A DNA stretch of 63,534 bases, the filler included, from Collodictyon triciliatum (lineage: Eukaryota): assembly GCA_043381765.1 (NCBI GenBank). It is 8 parts of 8 records of this genome, joined end to end, with 100 filler letters (N's around TTAATTAATTAA, not from the genome) between each part and the next. Parts side by side here need not be neighbours in the genome. Positions count along the whole stretch, not along the records: positions 33,923 to 42,559 come from JBHJMP010003342.1; 7 more parts are not named here. One strand, written 5' to 3'. Shown in pieces: positions 9,497 to 56,297 of the stretch. Each line of letters starts with the position of its first letter. Positions within the stretch are counted from its first letter, which is position 1. The position numbers were made by a program, and so were the translations under genes. The notes beneath the pieces were generated by a model. That model was given only the letters and a program-made list of their open reading frames with translations. It did no database searches and had not been told where the DNA came from.

Positions 9497-12400
9497 TTAT
9501 AGAGAGGACGATGAACCCTCTCTGAAGGTCGTCATTTCCATATCATTTTCATCTATCACTCTGTTTCTTATGCGAATGATTATTGATGATTTCATGATAG
9601 TCTCAAATATAGGGTGAATAAATCTCTCTATTTTTGTAAAGAAAGAGATGATTATTGCAGGGCCAGCTTTGGACAGAGAAACTATTGCAATCAACCCATT
9701 AGAGAAGGAGACAAGCAGAACGAGAAAATATTTGGTATATGTACTTATGTCTGAATAACGAAACAGAAGGCTTGTCATTAACGTAAAATAGAGTACTGAT
9801 GTTGACCAAATCTGATATTTCTTGAGGACATTTGACATGAACGGCTCGAAATATATCGACGACGCAATACTCAATATCAAAATCCAAGAGCCAAAGTAAA
9901 TTTGTAAAGCTGGAGAGAACAATACGCTAACAATAACAACAAGAAGCTTTTGCATCATCATAACTAATTCCCAGTAATAGCATCTTTCGTTGAACCCATC
10001 CATCAAAAATCGAAACAAGTTGTACGTATTAGATCCTGGATCAAGCAATAACGACCTTTTGGAAAACATATATAAAGCAAGAAATATCGGGCCACCAAAG
10101 CAGTACAGAACAACATAAACTATGCAAATATTTTTCCAAAGCAAATAAGTTGCATCATTGCACATGACTGACATATCAGCCTCCAAGTAATTTTCTTCAC
10201 CTAACTGTACACATCCGAATATGCTTGATATTGATGATGTTACTGTTGGGTGGATAAAAATCAAAATAACTAGCATATGAAATATGAATTCTTCATTGAA
10301 CTTATAAAATGTAAAATCCTTCTTATGAATTTGACATGTTTTTAATCTCCACAGAGTCTTAAATAACACTATTACTGAAACAATGACCACCAAAGCAAAC
10401 GGAGTAATCATCGCAAGAAAGACTTTGTCGTATACGTCCCAATCGAACTGACATTCCGTTGCATAATTGTCTATCGACAGAGAGAATGACAAAAAACTTG
10501 GAATTTTCATTACTGATATAATAGTCGCACTCCAGTCAACATCAAAGTTGGCTAGATAGGATAGAATCTGAAAATGTGTCGACAGCGTCTTCAAAATTTG
10601 AATATTCCCAGTTTTTGGTTGTCTTGACTGCTCTATCATGTAAAAAACAAACGAAAAGGGAAGCATAATTGCCAAAATAACCAGAAAACCATTTACACCT
10701 TTTTGCGAGCATTTTATGCAGTAATTTCCACCTATTTTCCCGTAACCTTCATTGCAGATACTGCACAAAACCCCGGTGTATCCCTCGGAACATGTGTTGT
10801 TATCTCCTCCCCTGCAAGATTCTTCGTTAAGACATTTGTATGTAATTAATTCACCTTTTGAACTCGGAGCTCGCCAATAACCTGGAGCTATCTTGATTTT
10901 GCTACTTCCATCACACGTAAATCCACTTGGACAGTCTTTGCACAGATTTGATTTAGAATCTAAGTATGTCGATGAAAAGCACAAACAATCATTCATGGTT
11001 GTAGACCCAATTATACCCCCATTCCACTCACTTGGGCACAAAGTGCAGTTTGTGTTAAATCCTACACTGAAGCTACCAGTTGAGCATGGTGCGCACGTTT
11101 TTTGAGCCAAATCATAGGAACCGCCTAAACAAACATCCCATATGTTGATGGTCCAATCACTGCCTCCCGAAACTATTTTTGACCCATCAAGCGAAGCGAT
11201 GACACTTTTAACACCGCCAATATGACCAGTCAATGTGCGAATCAAAGCTCCATCAGAAAGTTTCCAAATTTTGATGGTAGAATCGTTGCTTGCAGATATA
11301 ATTTTTGAACCATCAAAAGTAACAGAAACGCTCAAAACACAACTAGAATGACCGAATAATATTCGAATCAAAGTTCCATCATATATATTCCAAACTATGA
11401 TTGTAGCATCCGTGCTTCCAGACACAACGTTGTTACCATTAGGAGTAACAGCAACGGTTAAAACACCGCCTCTATGACCAAGCAAGGTACGATTCGAAGT
11501 TTCATCAGAAATATCCCAAATCTTGATACTTTCGTCAAGACTTCCAGACACGATTATCAAATCATCAGGAGTAACAGTAACACTAGTAACATAAGCAGCA
11601 TGACCACTTAATTTGCTAATAGAACTTAGATCAGAAAGATTCCAGATTAGTATTGTTCCACAGTCGCTTCCAGAAACAATTTTTGAGCCATCAGATGTAA
11701 CAGCAACACTAGTAACAACAGTTGTGTGATTAGTCAACGTGAGAATCAAAGTTCCATCAGAAAGATTCCAGATTCTTATTGTTCTATCATTGCTTCCAGA
11801 GATGATATTTGAGCCGTCATATGTAACAGTAACACTAGTAACCCCATCAGTATGATTAGTCAAAATGAGATTCAAACTTCCATCAGAAAGATTCCAGATT
11901 CTTATTGTTTTATCATCGCTTCCAGAGACTATTTTTGAGCCGTCAGGAGTAACTGCGACACTGTTAACATAATTGATATGACCAGTCAAATCTATATTCA
12001 AAGTTCCATTGAGAATATTCCAGATTTTTATTGTGCTATCATGGCTTCCAGAGACTATTTTTGAGCCGTCAGGAGTAACTGCGACACTGTTAACATAATT
12101 GGTATGACCAGTCAAATCTATATTCAAAGTTCCATTGAGAATATTCCAGATTTTTATTGTGCTATCAAAGCTTCCAGAGACAATTTTTGAGCCGTCAGAT
12201 GTAACAACAACACTAGTAACCCAATCAGTATGACCAGTCAATGTGTGAATCAAAGTTCCATTAGAAAGTTTCCAGATTTTTATTGTGCTATCGTCGCTTC
12301 CAGAGACGATATTTGAACCATCAGGAGTAATGGTAACACTTCGAATCCAATCGGTATGACCAGTCAACGTGCGAATCAAAGTTCCATTAGAAATATTCCA

Positions 12401-13103
12401 TATTTTGATTCCTAAGTCATGAAAGCTACCTCCGGAAACAATACTTGAGCTATCAGGAGAAACACAGACACTGTAAACACCAGTATCTTGATCAGGATTA
12501 TCAGTCAATATGAGAATCAAAGTTCCATTAGAAGCATTCCAAAGTCTGATTGTTCTATCAATACTTCCAGATACAATTTTCGAGCCATCAGGAGTGACTA
12601 TGACACTGTTAACACAATCGGTATGACCAGTCAACGTGCGAATCAAAGCTCCATTAGAAAGATTCCAAATTTTTATTGTACTATCAGCGCTTCCAGATAC
12701 AATTTTCGAGCCATCAGGAGTGATTATGACACTGTTAACACAATCGGTATGACCAGTCAACGTGCGAATCAAAGCTCCGTTAGAAAGATTCCAAATTTTT
12801 ATTGTACTATCAGCGCTTCCAGAGACGATATTTGAACCATTAGGAGTGATAGATACGCAGCGTACATCTATAGGACCTGATAAACTACGAATCAGAAAAT
12901 CATATTGCCCTTCAACTTGATGCACTTGACGAAATAAGATCAAACCTATTTTTTTTAATCATTTAAAAAAAGAAAGATAGGCTTGAATCGAATAAAGGAA
13001 ACCCAAAATTAGAAATAAAGCTATTGATATATTTCTAGAAAATAAGATATATTCGATCACTTAAGAGCGAAGCAGCCGCAATTCCCATAGAGGCCAATCT
13101 CAT
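9497..13103 (-). CDS. Signal peptide + 14 WD40 repeats + Cys-rich (TNFR/GCC-like) stalk + about 9-TM membrane domain
   Basis: 1148-aa ORF 9497-12943 plus a short upstream exon (MRLASMGIAAASLL.., ATG about 13103) that splices in frame. 14 GH..V.SV..TPDGS.IVSGS.D.TI.IWN repeats; CAPCSTGSFS, C.DCPSGFTC..PGYWR, CSEGYTGVLCSICNEGY; hydrophobic segments with the FLMDGF..YYWE...QK..PF motif. Confidence 0.88.
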
Positions 13104-33922: not shown

Positions 33923-34031
33923 ATACATACATACATACATACATACATACATACATACATACATACATACATACATACATACATACATACATACATACAT
34001 ACATACATACATACATACATACATACATACA
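33923..34031. repeat. (ATAC)n at contig start
   Basis: Seen directly. Confidence 0.95.
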
Positions 34032-35970
34032 TGCATATTGGTCATTTCATCTAACGCGAACAGAGGGATAAAAATTAAAAATTTGTGACAGGCACAGACA
34101 TATCTGAATATAAAACACATCCAAACCATGACATAATGTATTGAAATAAAATAGTCACATGTTCGTACAAAACAATAACAAGTATGAAGTATTCTCGCAT
34201 GGGGGATAGAAGATGCATATTGAAGCTGGATAATTGTTAGATATAGGACTGTAGTGAGTGAATCATAGAAACATACAATGTTTAAGTTAAATGGAAGCCC
34301 GTTTGAGGAAGGGAAACAAAACTCCCAAACGCTTCGAAGTTGGCAGCGCAGTCAGGAGACGAAGAGAACTTGGGCGCAAGGGTAGAGTATCTTAAATATT
34401 AAACATCCTAGTGATAGGACAGAAACCTATGAATGGAAAGGTGATGCATATATCAGCAAGATTCTTGACACGCATAAACCACACAAATATGAATATGAGA
34501 ATGATTGGATGTGGTATAAAGTGATAGAATGAAATTAAATCAGAAAATTATTTGGATAGGATAGACGAACGACCGAATGCCGAAAAAAAAACACTAATGA
34601 ATGCGCATTAAAAGCCAAAATGAATCATTGAATCCTGCGCTTTTGATGCAGAAAAGGAACATGGCTGAGTATATAGAACAATAATAATCGGTCGGAAGAA
34701 GGCAGGACATGCCATCTACATATAACAGTATTCCGAAAAGAACCGACTCCATAGCGGGGAGGATGTACAGTCAAGAGAGAATTCGATTCGTTAACCACTA
34801 CCCGAGTGAGCTAGCGAAAGACAACCGCGAACAGATGCTGTGAAAAGATGAAAAATAGGGATATGTTCATTCCAGCAAAACTGCTTTTCAAATGATGCGA
34901 GTAATTAAGAGGGCATGTTCGTTTGCGTCAGCTTTTTCTTGTTTAAGTAACTAGTGAGACTATGTATGCTTATCGAAAAGAAGATACTTCAATATTCTTG
35001 ATGTGTGCTGTCTGTCAAATTCTTATCCTTTATTTACTCGGCTATTGGGATACCTCAATTTTTTAAAAAAAATTCATCTTCATTAATACTATATCGACCT
35101 TATCGATTTCTGTTTTATCCTTATAACGTGTGCATTCCGACTAAAAAGCGGTTAATAACCCACACAGCCAAAAAAATAAAAATAAAAAAGGCCGTGTGCC
35201 TCGTTGAATCAGGTCTCAACACCCACTGCTCAGCACGAAAGTATATTCTGCAACGTGATAATTCTTCGAACTTTGTCTGCATTGTTTGACTATGTGCTGC
35301 TTTCGTGATTCTCGTTTACTCAGTGAACTGCAGCGAGTCGGTTCCCTTCGCAGCTTTTTTATTATGCTTTGCTTCGCCGCTTTGATTCACCGTTCGAGTT
35401 GATTCATTCGATAAACCCATCGCACAACGGTCAGAATGATAATTCCAGTCATGGATATATTCTTTGAATAAACTTTATATTTCTGGAAAATAATATATTT
35501 CTCGCCTCATTTAATCAGATTTTGATAAATATTAATTTTGAACTGTTTTTTGCATAAATATGCATTTATAATTCAACATATTACACATATTATTGTTTAT
35601 TTTCACTGTAATTCAATTCAATTTATTAGTTACGCAACATACAGTGGAAGTTTTCATTTCTTCTCGCTTTGGCGTTTTGTGTGATTGAATCAAGAATCCG
35701 CGAGATATCACTGCGCCAAACTACGTCTTGATTGCATCGCTGCAGTATTGTTGTGAGTGGACATAACCATATAATCATTGTTCTAAAATAAGAGTCACAG
35801 AGACCGCCATGTATATCGTCGTTCGAAAAAAAATAAAAGGTTTGAAAAGAAGGGAATAAGCATTCTAATGGCAAACATCTAAATACGACGAAATGATATT
35901 CCGTTCCAAAAAAAAAAAAAAGCGTCCATCACATAAAATAATGAGATAAAGGACAAATGCTTCTTCACAG

Positions 35971-36808
35971 ATACGGCCGTGGCGAAGCTTCTTTGCCATA
36001 AGAACCAGCTCCCTGCAAAGTTTACGGTGATGGGCAAAAAGTATCCAAAGCGCATCCTCAAAGAGCGTCCGCCAGCCGCGAACAACGAAAGACAAGTAAA
36101 AGCCTTGCAAAAGAATACACCTGCCAAACAGACAGGCAGCAATGGGGTCAAGAAAGTCAAAGCCAGGCAACAACTGAGCCCGAAAGACTCACAGCAGATA
36201 AGCGCATACAGCGACAGCGACGATGACATGAAAGGAAATCTCGGTTCCTCTTCAGAATCCTCGCACTCGAGCCCTCCACCGCCAACGCCGGACAAGCCCG
36301 CACATCGCAAGACCCAAGAGCAGCGCATCTCCAAACCCCGAAAGAAATCCCCCCTTAAACTTCCCATTCAGACTGACGTAAATATGGTTAACATGGGAGG
36401 CATCAAGGCAGTCTTCGTTACTTATCCGAAAGGATACTCCAAAGCGAAGGCTACACAAGAACCAGCGCCCACCAAAGATAGTCCGTTTACCTGCCCCAGC
36501 CCGTCACACCGAGAACCAAGGAGCAAGAGCAAACACCACAAGTCGAATCCAAGCTTGGAACTTCACACACTAAAGACAGTCCGAGCAAGCAGGAGTGTAT
36601 GTTTCTAAAACCACAAACGCGTATCCATACTCCGGTTAAGCAAAGTCCACTGCTTACTACGCATGGTCCCGATGCCAGGGGACGGTCAAGTGCCATTTCC
36701 GTGAATACCAGACAAACAACGATGCATCGCTTTCTATCTGAGTCACCCAGCAAGAAACGCAAGGAAAGTGACCCGTTGTCTCCTCGAAATACTCATCATT
36801 TGGAATGA
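35971..36808 (+). CDS. Exons of an unknown basic, Ser/Pro-rich disordered protein; upstream exons may reach about 34270
   Basis: Acceptor TTCACAG at about 35970, 209-aa K/S/P-rich ORF, then an in-frame short intron (about 36597-36640) to an exon with RQTTMHRFLSESPSKKRK. Confidence 0.5.
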
Positions 36809-37303
36809 AATAGGATGTAAACCTTGTCTGAGATAGACGGTTGAAAGGACTCGCCGGAATCGATTTGAGGAGTAACTGCCATGTGCGTACTTTCATCGAC
36901 CCGACAACTTTATCCGCTCTTCTGTCAGTCTCGAACACAACCAGAAATCGCGTTGAAGCTGATTCACCTCGGGTAGAATAGTCTGGGTGTGAGAACACTT
37001 TCTCTCATTCCTATCTTGTTTTCTTTCTATTTTCTTTTTCTTTCCACCCAAAACACAAAAACTCCAACCACACAATCCGGGGGTTTCTCACTGTCTTGTC
37101 CACATTATTTTTTTTTAAATAGGATATTATTTCAATTATCTATTTTTCAATGAAGCGTACAAAAAAAAAAAACTTAATAGGGGTTCCTTTATTTTTTTCA
37201 TAGTAGAGCCTACTTGGATAAAAAGCGAACTTGATGGCCAGAAATAGGGTCTGGGAAAGCTCAGAGCCTATTTTGACACCATCAGATTTAAGTTTTTCCT
37301 TTT

Positions 37304-37483
<180 letters not shown>

Positions 37484-37549
37484 GATCTTAAGCATAATGT
37501 TGTTGTAAAATAGACCTGTCTAAAATAATTTCGACTATATCATACCAAC

Positions 37550-40500
37550 TTATGCCGCCGAAGCTTTCTCTCTCCACTGCATCGCTTTATTGGTATCCCT
37601 TGCGACACCCCATCCATTTTCGTAGCATTCAGCAAGAGCTAAAATAGCTTCTTTACTTTTGAGCTCTTCCTCCTCTTCCATTTCCACGATTCCTTTCAAT
37701 GAATCGAATGCCTCCCTCGTGCCTTGCTGTGCAAGGTGTTTCAGCTTTTCAAATTTTTGTGCTTTTCCAAGCCATTCTGAGGTTTTCTCGATGTCTCTAT
37801 CAACGCCCCATCCGTTCTCATAACATTCAGCAACTATAGCCACAGCCTGAGGGTATTTATAGCTTCCATTCCACAACCTTATCTCAGCCACTTCAATCAG
37901 AACATCGAATGCTTCCCTCACCCCTTGATGTGCAAGGTGTTTCAGCTTTTCAAATTTTTGTGCTTTTCCAAGCCATTCTGAGGTTTTCTCGATGTCTCTA
38001 TCAACGCCCCATCCATTCTCATAACATTCAGCAACTATAGCCACAGCATGCAGATATTTATGCGTGTCTGCATCTTTGATATCAGCCACCGTTACGAGTG
38101 CTTCAAATGCCTCCTTGGACTTTTCTTGTGCTAGTTGCCTCAGTTTCTCAATTTTCCTGGCCTTTCCGAGCCATTCAATAGCTCGTCCCATATCTATATC
38201 AACTCCCCATCCATTCTCGTAGCATTCAGCAACAATAACCACAGCCTGGGGATATTTGTATTCCTCATATTCTTCTATCCCAGCCACCTCTATCAGAATA
38301 TTGAGAGCCTCTCTTGAACCTGCTTGCACTAATTTTTTAAGCTTGTCAAATTTTTCAGCCCTCCCGTACCACTTTGCCGCTTTATTAGTACTCTTCTCAA
38401 CACCCCATCCATTCTCATAGCATTCAGCCATCATATGAGCCTGGAACTTAGTAAAATGGCGTTGCTCGCAGTAGCTTATAAATTCCACATCAAAAGAGGC
38501 AGAACCTTCTTGCAGTAACAGTTTCTTACTCATCGCACTCAATCCTATGACATTCCTGTTCGAAATATGCGCTCCCTCGAACTTTCTTGAACCAAATATT
38601 CGAACCACACTGGTATGAACAATTTTATTTGTATCAATTGTCCTCCTTTCATCGATGGTTTCACAAAGAACCGGAATGTCGACACCCAAATTTTCTGTCT
38701 TGGAAACAGACCTATATCGCCCATACTCCGTTTCTGACTTTTGTAACCTGTATTCTTGGGTTTCAATACTTAATTCCAATATACGTACTAAATGATCAGA
38801 GCATCCATATACCAGCCAACTTTCGCCATTTGGTCCTTGAATACTGCAAACACTATTGACTGGCTCTGTATGCCCTTCTATTGTTTTGATTTGGTTTCCT
38901 GTGACTACATCCCAAATTTGTATTGTTTTATCATGACTTCCAGAGGCCAACCAATTTTCTCCATTCGGTCCTTGGATGCAGCAAATACCGTTGACATTCC
39001 ATGTGTGACCTTCTAATTTTTTGATTGGGTTTCCTGTGGCAACATCCCAAATACGTATTGTATTATCATGACTTCCAGAGGCCAACCAATTTTCTCCATT
39101 CGGTCCTTGGATGCAGCAAAGACTGTTGATAGCATCTGTATGTCCTTCTAATGTTTTGATTTGGTTTCCTGTAGCCACATCTAAAATCCGTAATTCATTG
39201 CCATTTGTTCCGTACGCCAGCCAATTTTCACCATTCGGACCTTGGATGCTGCAAACGCTGTTGATGTACTGGTCATAGATTTCAATTATTTTGGATCGAC
39301 ACCCGATAGATATATACCAAATACGTATTGTATTATCGCCACTTCCAGAAACCAACCATTTCTCGCCATTCGGACCTTGAATACTGCAAACACTATTCAC
39401 AGCATCTGTATGCCCTTCTAGTTTTCTTATTTGACTGCCTGTGGCTACGTCCCAAATACATATTGTATTGTCGCCACTTCCAGAAGCCAACCACTTTTCA
39501 CCATCCGGTCCTTGAATGCTGCAAACACTATTCACAGCATCTGTATGCCCTTCTAATTTTCTTATTTGACTGCCTGTGGCTACATCCCAGATACGTATTG
39601 TTTTATCATCACTTCCAGAAGTCAGCCACTTTTTACCATTCGGCCCTTGAACACTGCAAACACTAGAGACTCGTCTCTCATGACCGTTTGGTAATTTAAT
39701 TTGATTATTGGTAGAGATATACCAAATTCCTATTGTGTTATCATGACTTCCAGAGGCCAGCCAATTTTCACCATTCGGTCCTTGAATATTGCAAATACTG
39801 TTGACATTCCATGTATGACCTTCGAGTATTTTGATTTGGTTTCCAGTAACTACATCCCAAATGCATATTGTTTTATCATCGCTTCCAGAAGCCAGCCACT
39901 TTTCACCATTTGCCCCTTTAACACCACAAAGGCTACTGACAGCATCCTTATGCCTTTCTAATGTTTTGATTTGGTTTCCTGTGGTAATATCCCAAATACG
40001 TATCATTTTATCATCACTTCCAGAAACCAGCCAATTTTCACCGTTCGGTCCTTGAATACTGCAAACACTCATAATGGCTTCTGAATGATTTCCTAGTATT
40101 TTGATTTGGTTTCCCGAGGCTAAATCCCAAATGCGTATTGTATTGTCAAGACTTCCAGAAGCCAACCAGTTTTCACCGTTCGGTCCTTCAATGTTGCAAA
40201 TGGCCCTAATAGCGTCTTCGTGTCCTTCTAGTGTTTTGATTTGGTTTCCTGTGGCTACATCCCAAATACGTATTGTTTTATCTCCACTACCAGAAGCCAG
40301 CCATTTTTCGCCATTCGGTCCTTGAATACTACAAACACTCCAAACACCACTTGTGTGACCTTCTAATGTTTTGATTCGGTTTCCAGCTGCTACATCCCAA
40401 ATACATATTGTATTATCACTACTTCCGGAAACCAGCCAATTTTCACCGTTCAGTCCTTGAATACTGCAAACACTATTAACAGAATATGTGTGCCCTTCCA

Positions 40501-42544
40501 ATATTTCGATTGGGTTTCCAGTAGCTACATCCCAGATACGTATTGTTTTATCGTCGCTTCCAGAAGCCAACCAGTTTTCACCATTCGGTCCTTGAATGCT
40601 GCAAACACTCTTGACATAACCTGCATGTCCCAAAAACAAAGGCAAGCGACCAAAATTAACGCCTTTCATATTTGCGTCATCAAAAACACAGTTTGAAATA
40701 CACGCATTATAGAACAAAACATCCTCCAAGTTGGCACCTGTGAAGTCAGCACCATCAGCAACAGACTGTGACATATCAGCATTCGGAATGTGTATCCCTC
40801 TGAAATCCATGCCACTGAATGTAACGTCAGCATAATTCAGAATTGTGATAGCGTTTGATGCAGCTTGCGCTTTGGTTGCATCTGTCTTCGATTGCTCGAT
40901 GATCGAAAAGAGATTGTCTTTGTAGGTTTTGTCTTTGTTCACTTTTTCACTCAGGTTGAGCAGAATGGCAGGCTCAAGCTTTTTATCTAGAACATTCGTC
41001 TTCACTTTCGATTTCAACACAGAATGAACAGCATTTAAAAGCTTGAAGCTTGGTGATTTTGCATCAAATTCTCCATGTTTTGAATTCGCGGGTTCAGAGG
41101 ACGTTGCAACATTTTGAGCTTCCGTTGATGGTTCGGCAGAATCTTTATTTTCCGCATCGGAACTATTGATTTCATCTTTGATGTACTCAGCAGCAAAGAA
41201 TTCGTAGAGCGATTTGTGAAAGAACTCATATGTTGTGGCGCTAGATTTCTTAATAGGTGCACATCGCAATACGAAGACAGAGTAAGTTCGCTCACCATCA
41301 ATCATATGGTCTGGATTAGGATGGAAAAACTCATCGTATTCATGCTTTTTAGCCTTCCCCTCAACTTTGTCGTACTCCAAAGCAAGATGGCCTTTCTGGA
41401 ACATGACTTCTGCAATATCTTTGCACTTCACCCAAAGCAATCTTTCCAAATCTTCAGGCATTTTCTGTTTCAATGAAAAATTTTCTTCAAGCTTCTCTCT
41501 TTCGCGTTCGAACCATCTTCTCGAAAACCTGTCCAGAAAATCTGTTCTCATGATTTTTTCATTCTCTTTCGATTTCGACTCATCTCTTTCCTTCAGTATG
41601 GACGGCAGGGTGGTGGCTGCCATGAAAATCATAAACGGAGTGACAGTCAATTCGTCCAGCTCCTTTATTTTCTTCAATTCTTCCTCGTACTTTTCACCAT
41701 TTTCCCACCCTTCAATGGGATTTCTCGTAGCATACTTGTTGAAGTAATCAAGCCTTTGCTTAGTTTCAAAAGGTCTCAGATATATTTCATCCAGAGAGTA
41801 TCCATGACTAGCTTTGGGTGCAAAAAGCGATTGATACTGAGATTTCTTATCCAAAAACTGCTTGCGGCATCCAATGACAAACTTGCAGTTGGGCCATTCT
41901 TCAAGCTTATTTGATTTATAAAAGGATGTACCACTATCTTCAATCTCATCGTAACCATCCAGGAAAATGATGAATTTCATCTTTTTCAATTCTTTTATTT
42001 GTTCGACTCGAAAATCAGAGTCTGGGATGTAGAAGCTGTTTTTACTCTCAGAAAGAAGCAGTTCTTCGATGGCATTTTCTCTGGGCTTTTCCAATGAAGT
42101 GAGAGCAGCATACAAAGGAATATGTGACTTTCCATATTCATACTTTTCCCAAAGCAATCGCACAATAAACTGCTGTAACAATGATTTCCCAGAACCAGAA
42201 TCGCCAAGTATCAGCAGCACTTTTTCTTTTGTAGATGTAAAGAAATTCAGGATGTATTCTTGGGCACCAAAAACTTTTCCTTTCTCAACAATTCTTTCGG
42301 CTTGGCCAGGAATATACGTATTAAAACGACTATTGAATTCTTCATTTCGAATGGTCTCCTCCTTGATATTCTCGATGATGTCGTGAATCGTTCTTTCGTC
42401 TTTACCAGCCTTTTCAAAAAGTGCAGTTGGTAATGTTGACTCTTTTGGCTTATATTCTGCCATTTCTTGCTTTTTTGATTCCACAAATCGGTTAATAACC
42501 TCACTTTTCAGCCATTTTTCATGACGTGTGATATGCTCCATCAA
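37550..42544 (-). CDS. STAND/NACHT NTPase + pentapeptide repeats + 14 WD40 + Sel1-like repeats (NWD-type NLR-like), intronless, probably 5'-truncated
   Basis: Walker A LLILGDSGSGKS; Walker B IIFLDGYDEI; LRPF, TPFMI and FFHKSLYEFFAA motifs; ADMSQSVADGADFTGANLEDVLF pentapeptides; 14 x 45-aa WD40; 5 x AECYENGWGV. The frame stays open to the contig edge. Confidence 0.93.
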   Translation of the reverse strand: MMEHITRHEKWLKSEVINRFVESKKQEMAEYKPKESTLPTALFEKAGKDERTIHDIIENIKEETIRNEEFNSRFNTYIPGQAERIVEKGKVFGAQEYILNFFTSTKEKVLLILGDSGSGKSLLQQFIVRLLWEKYEYGKSHIPLYAALTSLEKPRENAIEELLLSESKNSFYIPDSDFRVEQIKELKKMKFIIFLDGYDEIEDSGTSFYKSNKLEEWPNCKFVIGCRKQFLDKKSQYQSLFAPKASHGYSLDEIYLRPFETKQRLDYFNKYATRNPIEGWENGEKYEEELKKIKELDELTVTPFMIFMAATTLPSILKERDESKSKENEKIMRTDFLDRFSRRWFEREREKLEENFSLKQKMPEDLERLLWVKCKDIAEVMFQKGHLALEYDKVEGKAKKHEYDEFFHPNPDHMIDGERTYSVFVLRCAPIKKSSATTYEFFHKSLYEFFAAEYIKDEINSSDAENKDSAEPSTEAQNVATSSEPANSKHGEFDAKSPSFKLLNAVHSVLKSKVKTNVLDKKLEPAILLNLSEKVNKDKTYKDNLFSIIEQSKTDATKAQAASNAITILNYADVTFSGMDFRGIHIPNADMSQSVADGADFTGANLEDVLFYNACISNCVFDDANMKGVNFGRLPLFLGHAGYVKSVCSIQGPNGENWLASGSDDKTIRIWDVATGNPIEILEGHTYSVNSVCSIQGLNGENWLVSGSSDNTICIWDVAAGNRIKTLEGHTSGVWSVCSIQGPNGEKWLASGSGDKTIRIWDVATGNQIKTLEGHEDAIRAICNIEGPNGENWLASGSLDNTIRIWDLASGNQIKILGNHSEAIMSVCSIQGPNGENWLVSGSDDKMIRIWDITTGNQIKTLERHKDAVSSLCGVKGANGEKWLASGSDDKTICIWDVVTGNQIKILEGHTWNVNSICNIQGPNGENWLASGSHDNTIGIWYISTNNQIKLPNGHERRVSSVCSVQGPNGKKWLTSGSDDKTIRIWDVATGSQIRKLEGHTDAVNSVCSIQGPDGEKWLASGSGDNTICIWDVATGSQIRKLEGHTDAVNSVCSIQGPNGEKWLVSGSGDNTIRIWYISIGCRSKIIEIYDQYINSVCSIQGPNGENWLAYGTNGNELRILDVATGNQIKTLEGHTDAINSLCCIQGPNGENWLASGSHDNTIRIWDVATGNPIKKLEGHTWNVNGICCIQGPNGENWLASGSHDKTIQIWDVVTGNQIKTIEGHTEPVNSVCSIQGPNGESWLVYGCSDHLVRILELSIETQEYRLQKSETEYGRYRSVSKTENLGVDIPVLCETIDERRTIDTNKIVHTSVVRIFGSRKFEGAHISNRNVIGLSAMSKKLLLQEGSASFDVEFISYCEQRHFTKFQAHMMAECYENGWGVEKSTNKAAKWYGRAEKFDKLKKLVQAGSREALNILIEVAGIEEYEEYKYPQAVVIVAECYENGWGVDIDMGRAIEWLGKARKIEKLRQLAQEKSKEAFEALVTVADIKDADTHKYLHAVAIVAECYENGWGVDRDIEKTSEWLGKAQKFEKLKHLAHQGVREAFDVLIEVAEIRLWNGSYKYPQAVAIVAECYENGWGVDRDIEKTSEWLGKAQKFEKLKHLAQQGTREAFDSLKGIVEMEEEEELKSKEAILALAECYENGWGVARDTNKAMQWREKASAA

Positions 42545-42559
42545 TTCGCGGACTTTTTG

Positions 42560-42659
42560 NNNNNNNNNNNNNNNNNNNNNNNNNNNNNNNNNNNNNNNNN
42601 NNNTTAATTAATTAANNNNNNNNNNNNNNNNNNNNNNNNNNNNNNNNNNNNNNNNNNNN
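42560..42659. other. Artificial contig spacer
   Basis: Same linker. Confidence 0.99.
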
Positions 42660-54656: not shown

Positions 54657-56297
54657 GGTTCTACAGGAGGCAATCAGGGCACAAGAGCACAGTCTCCCAA
54701 CACCACATTTGTTTATGAGGTCCCAACCTCAAAGACGGAAATAATATCGAGCGATGAGAGAAAGTTGGCTCAATTAATTGATGAAAGCGATGAAACAAAC
54801 AAATTGATTGATGAAATATACACTCCAGATGCTCTAAGCGAAAAATATCCAACGAATCCACTTGCAAGTCTTTCCTTCTTCCTCAGAATCGAGTATATTC
54901 TAAGTAATGCCGAGAAAATACAAAAACTACTAGCAAAGGCAGTTGAGACGAATCCTCTATTCAAAAAATTACGCGAAAATGTTACTTATATTGAGGTATT
55001 CAGAGAAGCACTAATCTATTTTGATGCTAATCCTAAGAAAGCTCAGATTCTATTTGTGCATTGTATCTTAAAAGATAAATCTTTCAGTCCTGCCTTTGTG
55101 GCACTCAGAGAGCTATACTATGCTTATCCCGAGCTCATCATTTTTCCAAGCGAGAGACCACAGTGCGACAAAATCCTGGAGCAAATTGAACACATCGAAC
55201 CGGAGGTGCTGAAGAAAGATATCAAGACCCTAGAGGCAGAAAAGTCTTATCCCATCGCCAATTACTTACTGTCGCTTTATTATTCATGGGGATGGGGTAC
55301 AGAGAGAGACTACGACAAGGCATACAAACTCCTCGAGGGACTCGACACAAGAATTCAGAAATACAAATCCTTTGGAATCGGATGTATCTATAAAAGAGGA
55401 TACACCGCCAGAAACATGAAGCCTAATGCTTTAAGCGCATTCACTGAATTTTTACAGGCAGCCCAGATGGAACATTGTGCATCCATATTGAACGTTGCAA
55501 ACACTTATATGTTTGGAGTCGGGGTTGAAAAAAGTGAAGAGGAATCATATAAATGGCTAAAAAATGCGGCAGTAAAAGGAGAGCCGGTCTCGCAGTATAC
55601 TTGTGCTCTGGTCGTGCAAAAGTCAAATGATGAAGAATATCAAAAATTAATCAAACAATCGTCTCGTAAGGGGTGTTCTCTTGCCCAATACAAGCGAGCT
55701 ACCGAGTTACTCGAAAGAGGACAAACTACTTCATCGATATTAGAACTGGACCGATGCATTGATTGGTTGGAGTTGGCATCGACACAAGGTCACCAACGCG
55801 CATCCCAGGTACTCCGCATACTGCAACTGAAGAAGGCAATTGAGAGCCAGTCTAAAATGGTGAGCGGTTTCAATGAGCCGAATGAAAACACGACGGCTGT
55901 GGAGATATTAGAAAAGCACCGCAAAGAGCTGTTTGTACTTCTTGACAGCGTGAAGGATGACAGCTTCATGGCAAAGTATGAAGTGGGGTGTGCGTACGCC
56001 CTTGGTCTTGGGACGGCAACTGACCCGAAGAAAGCCTTTCAGATTTTCGAATCCCTGTCGAGTGGCAGATTCAGTGATGCTCATATCCAATTAGGGCTCT
56101 GCTATGAGTTTGGAGAAGGAACACTCAAAGACGAATCCAAAGCACTTGAATTATACACACTTTCTTATGAAGACCGTCCCAGTGTCTCCGGACAGCACAT
56201 CAAGCGCGTCGTAAACACACTCAAATCAAAAAAACTGCACTCAGAGCAGGTCTCGGATATCCAAGCGCGATACCCAGCCATATTCAACGGCGCTTAA
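54657..56297 (+). CDS. Sel1-like repeat region; probably the last exon of the upstream pseudokinase gene
   Basis: YSWGWGTERDYDKAY, YMFGVGVEKSEEESYKW, YALGLGTATDPKKAF, LGLCYEFGEGTLKDESKA. No ATG near the 5' end of the open frame; acceptor CGCAG at 54656. Confidence 0.85.
   Translation, partial: GSTGGNQGTRAQSPNTTFVYEVPTSKTEIISSDERKLAQLIDESDETNKLIDEIYTPDALSEKYPTNPLASLSFFLRIEYILSNAEKIQKLLAKAVETNPLFKKLRENVTYIEVFREALIYFDANPKKAQILFVHCILKDKSFSPAFVALRELYYAYPELIIFPSERPQCDKILEQIEHIEPEVLKKDIKTLEAEKSYPIANYLLSLYYSWGWGTERDYDKAYKLLEGLDTRIQKYKSFGIGCIYKRGYTARNMKPNALSAFTEFLQAAQMEHCASILNVANTYMFGVGVEKSEEESYKWLKNAAVKGEPVSQYTCALVVQKSNDEEYQKLIKQSSRKGCSLAQYKRATELLERGQTTSSILELDRCIDWLELASTQGHQRASQVLRILQLKKAIESQSKMVSGFNEPNENTTAVEILEKHRKELFVLLDSVKDDSFMAKYEVGCAYALGLGTATDPKKAFQIFESLSSGRFSDAHIQLGLCYEFGEGTLKDESKALELYTLSYEDRPSVSGQHIKRVVNTLKSKKLHSEQVSDIQARYPAIFNGA

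Follow-up and report, generated by a model that had tools for sequence, protein, structure and literature searches.

An NLR-like NACHT–pentapeptide–WD40–Sel1 protein of Collodictyon triciliatum and the WD40 repeats that its family shares with a second NACHT class

The truncated protein encoded on contig C3342 of C. triciliatum is ordinary-looking in layout for a known NLR-like clade, and new in two respects: the diversifying pool of WD40 repeats that its family shares with a second NACHT class, and a putative lipid anchor at the N-terminus. We consider the protein more probably than otherwise a host-encoded NLR-like sensor of non-self that arose from a lineage-specific expansion. In such a sensor, the double propeller would bind a ligand that is foreign or altered, nucleotide exchange and oligomerisation would take place at the NACHT module, and the N-terminal HEAT/ARM-like domain would be clustered at the membrane, where cleavage at an LxGG motif exposing a myristoylatable glycine could anchor it. 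Ectopic recombination or gene conversion among the repeats would renew the specificities in both families, as in the HNWD family of Podospora, and the Sel1-like tail (0–7 units in close paralogs) would serve as an additional surface for interaction, one that is dispensable. Repeat diversification in the manner of HET-E has been documented for filamentous fungi; here, it concerns a single-celled CRuMs-like flagellate and two unrelated NACHT classes. The findings suggest that free-living protists possess NLR-like receptors able to generate repertoires.

The stretch of DNA analysed (63,534 nt; hereafter, the window) is composed of unrelated contigs joined via N spacers, among which C3342 occupies positions 33923–42559. 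Its minus strand carries a single-exon frame of 1,669 open codons (1,669 aa), which extends 15 bases past position 42544 up to the contig end and is open at the 5′ end (Table 1). The order of NACHT, pentapeptide, WD40, and Sel1 modules proposed in an earlier note on this DNA was confirmed within this one frame by Pfam and by the repeat period. Pfam NACHT (PF05729) matches aa 114–276 above the cut-off (E, 2.5e-7). As in STAND/NACHT NLR-like proteins, a P-loop with Walker A, Walker B, and a winged-helix motif are present, together with C-terminal superstructure-forming repeats. The WD40 array has an exact 45-aa period (TRF period, 135; 13.5 copies), and its 14 units would form two 7-blade propellers. 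The earlier note described 14 highly similar units of 45 aa; the count and the 45-aa/135-bp period hold, but the similarity is moderate (mean identity, 62% aa and 72% nt; 58–87% nt over 91 pairs), and units 11 and 14 are degenerate. All six GH motifs and the SGSxD variants that it quoted are found in the protein. The Sel1-like repeats are likewise present as five units (five PF08238 stretches agreeing with the 36-aa consensus; E, 7e-29), but with a period of 66–67 aa instead of the canonical 36, each unit having ~30 additional helical residues relative to the 36-aa Sel1. The DNA identity between units 3 and 4 reaches 95% across 105 nt, presumably through recent duplication or conversion.

Table 1. 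Features of contig C3342 in window coordinates
Feature	Position	Strand	Remark
Intronless open frame	37550–42559	−	5′ end cut by contig end
N-terminal helical (ARM_5 / NLR_Helical-like) domain, last 56 residues	42392–42559	−	aligns with paralog aa 750–800
NACHT module and helical linker	40835–42391	−	Pfam NACHT and paralog alignment
Walker A	42182–42205	−	conserved in NACHT alignment
Walker B	41948–41974	−	conserved in NACHT alignment
Winged-helix motif	41183–41221	−	conserved in NACHT alignment
Pentapeptide repeats	40646–40834	−	PF00805, aa 581–616, E 8e-8
14 WD40 units of 45 aa	38756–40645	−	aa 639–1268; Pfam WD40, E 7e-111
Linker with C-terminal cap motif of the family	38450–38755	−	pattern also in 25 of 188 outside homologs
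Five Sel1-like units	37553–38449	−	spacing 66, 66, 67, and 66 aa
Host-type microsatellite including (TTA)n at 37332–37483	37303–37483		just 3′ of the stop codon
Microsatellite (ATAC)n	33923–34037		same contig
N-run/spacer between unrelated contigs	42560–42659		end of C3342

A search of the genome with the C3342 NACHT gave at least 41 matches, at least 22 of them at 60–100% identity on 21 contigs; among these close matches, 16 span the whole query and the rest are pieces. The remaining 19 (a lower bound) are 22–35% identical. The family, whose size the earlier note had proposed to check, is thus multi-copy, with at least 22 close NACHT matches on 21 contigs. Comparison of C3342 with nine paralogs gave NACHT pN/pS values of 0.13–0.27 at pS of 0.25–0.81, indicating constrained paralogs rather than alleles. 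The close paralogs are single frames of 1,850–2,500 aa with, by pattern count, ~8–17 WD40 and 0–7 Sel1-like units. Contig C2561 (loci L034 and L010) has a 3,173-aa frame with two helical-NACHT modules, and C12522 (L077) shows a similar Sel1-to-helical read-through. In both tandem fusions, the Sel1-like array continues in frame into a second helical-NACHT module without a leader, so the C3342 gene itself could be such a second module. Contigs from two sets, X1 and X2, which are only guessed to be RNA, match the helical, NACHT, WD40, and Sel1 parts of L034, mostly with 90–99% likeness; they leave its LxGG region uncovered and are no evidence on expression or a 5′ exon. Six distant intronless LxGG-bearing NACHT-WD40 paralogs (L087–L092; LxGG/G, the slash marking the putative cut) are placed elsewhere in the NACHT tree, and this placement suggests more than one acquisition or an old duplication.

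Walker A is located at aa 119 of the C3342 protein and at aa 780–871 of most full-length paralog frames; the protein therefore lacks ~660–750 N-terminal residues. None of the contigs compared overlaps exactly with the 5′ end of this copy (best, 94%), and the missing part was read from the paralogs. The full-length paralogs begin with a leader, a Gln/Ser-rich stretch, and a helical domain of 340–390 aa, in the pattern leader-LxGG/G-x-x-x-S followed by the HEAT/ARM-like domain. ARM_5 was detected below the cut-off (E, 0.002–0.003) in two of the six close paralogs scanned, and would be equivalent to NLR_Helical. An iterated profile from the paralog helical domain recovers the N-termini of Mortierellaceae proteins with high scores, and by this profile evidence the domains are homologous. 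In the structure model (pLDDT, 73), which has two helical stretches, a solenoid of HEAT/ARM type is accompanied by a long hairpin and by a bundle, a fold as described for NLR_Helical in the available part of PMC9815663 (section 16, S1). Structure comparison gave no enzyme or pore-former match to the domain (best Z, 9.9, generic HEAT/ARM). A pore-forming role was also rejected on the grounds that no segment reaches transmembrane strength (best 19-residue hydropathy, 1.3–1.6). The earlier note was thus correct that the N-terminus is cut off at the contig end, but the effector that it assumed is, judged from the paralogs, a HEAT/ARM-like domain with no recognisable death or enzyme effector.

The leader ends in GG/G in 27 of the 28 paralogs (15/15 close and 12/13 distant; 0.65 expected by shuffling); the distant count covers 13 of 18 distant contigs, and the motif of L082 lies in the open frame that precedes a stop. 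Ser or Thr occupies position 5 after GG in 22 of the 27. The leader is under coding constraint: of 26 close pairs, 24 have pN below pS, and in two near-identical pairs the values are about equal. The motif is downstream of an upstream Met in the transcript-derived P0049 from D. rotans, and several paralogs have no in-frame Met ahead of it. Of the 89 outside representatives whose N-termini are long, 11 start with Met-Gly (the named carrier being Hexamita inflata), 12 have a GG/G-type site (~9 convincing), 66 have neither, and none has both. We take the Met-Gly starts to fit a myristoylation-type pattern. The either-or distribution of Met-Gly and GG/G is the best argument that GG/G hides the same glycine signal. 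Cleavage after LxGG may thus expose a myristoylatable glycine and give a membrane anchor, a proposal that we make tentatively. It is weakened by the leader model, which is not that of ubiquitin, and by the paralogs with no in-frame Met ahead of the motif, for which a further 5′ exon may exist.

A β-strand is predicted up to the motif, as in a ubiquitin-like C-terminus ending in LxGG. The leader was rejected as ubiquitin itself: its all-β model is of low confidence (pLDDT, 65), the best Z was 3.6 with no match at Z of 4 or above, and no ubiquitin Pfam match was found in the paralog leaders. Atlas searches with the leader returned blank results or values below 0.9, searches with the leader alignment and region yielded no new relatives, and own and outside leaders did not detect each other by profile (E >0.4). 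The prodomains of Amoebophilus may resemble the leader. The supplement of PMC3482391, which in its available part describes Amoebophilus APD1/APD2, contains no match to it. In Pseudomonas AvrPphB, a lipid anchor also follows proteolysis (PMC5091034, available part), and the acylated plant NLR PML5 is a lipid-anchored immune-related protein (PMC11467418, available part); both are unrelated in sequence to the C3342 family, in which cleavage would take place at a ubiquitin-like LxGG and the protein contains no protease of its own. An extended form of the proposal, which we likewise hold to be possible rather than probable, is that the myristoyl-glycine of the clade is either exposed (Met-Gly, in Hexamita and others) or hidden behind LxGG (in C. 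triciliatum and others), that a deubiquitinase-type cut, possibly by an enzyme of the invader, licenses or triggers the receptor, and that two unrelated NLR classes take new specificities from one common, diversifying WD40 library. Exposure or hiding of the glycine bears on the route by which the uncharacterised NLR_Helical family arrives at membranes; a cleavage-dependent anchor, if true, would be a mode of NLR licensing not found in the literature searched. Within that literature, whose coverage stopped short of subscription journals, there was likewise nothing on LRGG/LxGG with myristoylation and NACHT, on NLRs of Diphylleia, or on NACHT with Sel1 in protists.

In a search with a profile built from 16 own NACHTs, proteins of Mycoavidus and Mortierellaceae and one D. 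rotans transcript protein ranked at the top. Names were looked up for 30 outside proteins, many being without a name, and no named ciliate was present among the NACHT matches that could be named. The ranking and the NACHT relatives support the earlier assignment to NLR-like STAND proteins of the Mortierellaceae/endosymbiont type; PMC9815663 and PMC11291939, in their available parts, class the relatives in bacteria and fungi as NLR-like. The NACHT tree (FastTree; 188 regions, 433 columns, midpoint root), with rows below 300 matched positions and most Mortierellaceae matches left out, joins the C3342 clade to D. rotans P0049 and P0126 and to own L044, L082, and L083 (support, 0.98); P0049 is the sister of L044 (52–59% identity). 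The Mortierellaceae/Mycoavidus/Glomeribacter clade (support, 1.0) leaves the C3342 clade outside, and the deep nodes are weak; the phylogeny suggested in the earlier note thus sets the fungal and endosymbiont proteins on a separate branch and the own clade with D. rotans. The microsatellites on the contig, the D. rotans grouping, the close NACHT matches (at least 22 of 41, at 60–100% identity), and the NACHT pN/pS of 0.13–0.27 identify the C3342 gene as host DNA. No relatives were found in the viral contigs or plasmids searched; the matches in a GTDB scan were dominated by unrelated Sel1 proteins, and a metagenome scan yielded no named LxGG/G carrier.

The NLR_Helical-NACHT-WD40 proteins of Mortierellomycetes and Mycoavidus cysteinexigens, in the available parts of their descriptions, share with the C3342 family the two-stretch helical N-terminus, pentapeptide and WD40 repeats, a related NACHT (about 30% identity), and the C-terminal cap motif, and their NACHT–pentapeptide–WD40 order is that of the C3342 protein. 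In contrast to them, the C3342 family forms a separate clade with D. rotans and has 45-aa WD40 units with a longer loop, an added Sel1-like array of 66-aa period, and, in its paralogs, the LxGG/G leader that is absent in the Mortierellaceae proteins examined. The unannotated EukProt transcripts P0049 and P0126 belong to the C3342 clade and have 45-aa WD40 units; P0049 contains LRGG/GCGxS, and P0126 has the Sel1-like variant as in C3342. Both are about 30% identical to the C3342 protein, and their WD40 units are diverged, not homogenised. In the wider clade, P0085 and P0164 from the diplomonad Hexamita inflata are multi-copy NACHT-pentapeptide-WD40 proteins with a Met-Gly-Cys acylation-type start, and P0044, P0043, and several Mortierellaceae proteins have two NACHT modules per chain.

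It is conceivable, though rather unlikely, that the protein is a domesticated endosymbiont effector, its leader with LxGG/G being a former signal for secretion and host processing, and that it now serves as a membrane-anchored scaffold for managing symbionts or prey and not as an alarm receptor. The C3342 gene is intronless, and family members are single exons of 5–7 kb, whereas the housekeeping NMT gene of the same genome matches exon by exon and is split into short exons. The closest outside NACHTs are those of Mycoavidus, Glomeribacter, Mortierellaceae, and unnamed intronless metagenome proteins; the related loci L182 and L173 adjoin HU, ankyrin, and CCDC90-like genes and a DppA-like gene, respectively; and own paralogs fall into no fewer than two distinct regions of the NACHT tree. 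PMC11291939, in its available part, argues that such NLRs passed from Mycoavidus to Mortierellomycota. A bacterial origin of the intronless NACHT gene is plausible, but the C3342 clade lies outside every named bacterial clade and the deep nodes are weak, so that the tree points to no donor or direction of transfer. Such an origin would be compatible with a receptor role, and the hypervariable propeller faces suit recognition more than scaffolding.

For analysis of these faces, 230 ungapped WD40 units were collected (146 from 16 genes of the C3342 family and 84 from 12 genes of the second family), degenerate units, including two of the 14 of C3342, being dropped. Entropy peaks at unit positions 10, 31, 9, and 12 in both families and is lower at position 33; the C3342 array itself is variable at positions 9, 10, 12, 31, and 33. 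The 230 units display 220 different combinations of residues at the four positions. Positions 10/12 flank the conserved V11 and positions 31/33 the conserved D32; in HET-E, variable codons 7/9 and 25/27 flank the conserved 8 and 26 (PMC1805685, available part). By analogy, positions 10/12 and 31/33 would correspond to HET-E 7/9 and 25/27, and the peaks fit the earlier claim of variability at HET-E-equivalent positions under this presumed mapping. Selection was estimated from 58–67 disjoint close pairs of extant units. Relative to the framework pS, pN/pS is 0.35–0.45 for the framework, 2.8–5.0 for position 10, and 3.2–5.1 for position 31. Replacements exceed the silent changes of the same position at position 10 (p, 4e-5 to 2e-3), with p values of 0.001–0.08 at position 31 and 0.012–0.26 at position 33; positions 9 and 12 are not significant (p, 0.05–0.91) and also have raised silent divergence. 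After correction for 45 sites, the excess holds at position 10 alone (three of four settings); at two more of the four HET-E equivalents it is suggestive. Diversifying selection on the binding-face positions is thus likely, while variability at positions 9 and 12 possibly reflects local hypermutation or relaxed constraint, given their raised silent divergence.

Largely neutral birth-and-death of the family, with variability arising from relaxed constraint on exposed loops plus recombination, is in our estimation improbable. In its favour, several Sel1-array matches in the genome are interrupted by stops, tandem read-through fusions occur on C2561 and C12522, and silent divergence is also raised at positions 9 and 12; against it stand the long intact frames, the constrained NACHT (pN/pS, 0.13–0.27), the framework pN/pS below 0.5, and the surplus of replacements at position 10 (lowest p, 4e-5).

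The Sel1 array of C3342 has 178 matches in the genome, well beyond the C3342 family. In most of the 20 Sel1-match contigs examined, a pentapeptide–WD40–Sel1 cassette forms the final exon of an intron-rich gene, in which upstream TPR exons and a different NACHT were found (TPR and Walker A exons checked); the cassette of L056 (contig C5110) has the longest Sel1-like array seen, with ~16 units. The C3342 NACHT gave no tblastn match to any of 16 NACHT-TPR loci, several of which end short of the NACHT exons. For the pentapeptide block, DNA identity is 63% between families against 84% within, whereas WD40 units are 74.7% identical across families against 73.4% between genes of the C3342 family. At four-fold sites, the cross-family identity of the WD40 units reaches 0.657 and that of the pentapeptide block next to them 0.468, against 0.31 expected from base usage, and the majority WD40 codon agrees between families in 45 of 45 columns. 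Cross-family pairs with at least 90% identity number 46 of 12,264. The unit tree retains family structure (50 family-label changes; 68 ± 3 when shuffled; minimum, 1), and by these comparisons the mixing of the WD40 pool across families is strong but incomplete, with exchange either partial or past. The WD40 units of P0049 and of own L044 have diverged from one another and are conserved by position, so WD40 homogenisation is derived. The cassette link between the families is old, WD40 exchange having continued afterwards.

As in the HNWD family of Podospora, the repeats evolve in concert between genes and between NACHT clades. According to the available part of PMC1805685, HET-D/HET-E also combine NACHT with WD40 and have four variable positions around two conserved sites, and HNWD repeats are common to different NACHT clades. 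The C3342 family differs in that it has no HET domain (0 of 8 paralog N-termini), a NACHT of a different clade, additional pentapeptide and Sel1 modules, and weaker homogenisation (72% nt within the C3342 gene versus up to 100% in HET-D/HET-E), and in that repeat sharing reaches an intron-rich, TPR-bearing family without tblastn similarity in NACHT. The variable positions and repeat exchange as in het-d/het-e could indicate allorecognition or kin discrimination instead of anti-microbe defence. The lack of a HET domain and the different NACHT clade speak against this reading, and conspecific cell fusion is not known in these flagellates; we regard it as very improbable.

The earlier note regarded two repeat arrays in one STAND protein as unusual, a view that is weakened: WD40 followed by Sel1 is a minority layout that is not peculiar to the C3342 gene. 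The bacterial contig of L182 encodes the NACHT-pentapeptide-WD40-Sel1 order, Sel1 follows WD40 in four of 188 outside homologs (P0188, P0100, P0070, and P0126, by a small local Sel1 profile), and Pfam detects Sel1 in three of seven distant own paralog tails. The bacterial or metagenomic L182, P0188, P0100, and P0070 have the four modules in the same order as C3342, but with canonical 36-aa Sel1, ordinary WD40 units, and different or no N-terminal domains; a bacterial gene neighbourhood was observed for L182 only. The 66-aa Sel1-like unit is a local variant that D. rotans P0126 also has. A survey of fungal NLRs includes a 'mixed' category, and its available part does not mention Sel1 (PMC12258605). 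The dual layout by itself is of little importance. That C3342 is a bacterial contaminant or an assembly chimera between WD40 and Sel1 is largely refuted and hardly credible, for although introns are absent, bacterial relatives share the layout, and repeats are an assembly hazard, the contig has host microsatellites, intron-rich genes also carry the cassette as their final exon, the WD40–linker–Sel1 order recurs in many independent contigs, and the D. rotans transcript P0126 has the matching order and Sel1 variant.

Several other genes were observed in the window. The intronless gene at 9497–12958 (minus strand) has 14 similar 42-aa WD40 units of a different repeat family, variable at the corresponding GH and SGS positions. 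After the array come a Cys-rich ephrin-receptor-like/DUF7630 region and a number of hydrophobic segments; the product could be a membrane receptor whose propeller diversifies. The frames at 51577–54387 and 54651–56297 (both plus strand), possibly exons of one gene, encode two kinase-like domains after a Gln-rich repeat and then canonical Sel1 repeats. The region 46220–47686 (plus strand) encodes a NIDO domain and then the start of a leucine-rich-repeat-like segment.
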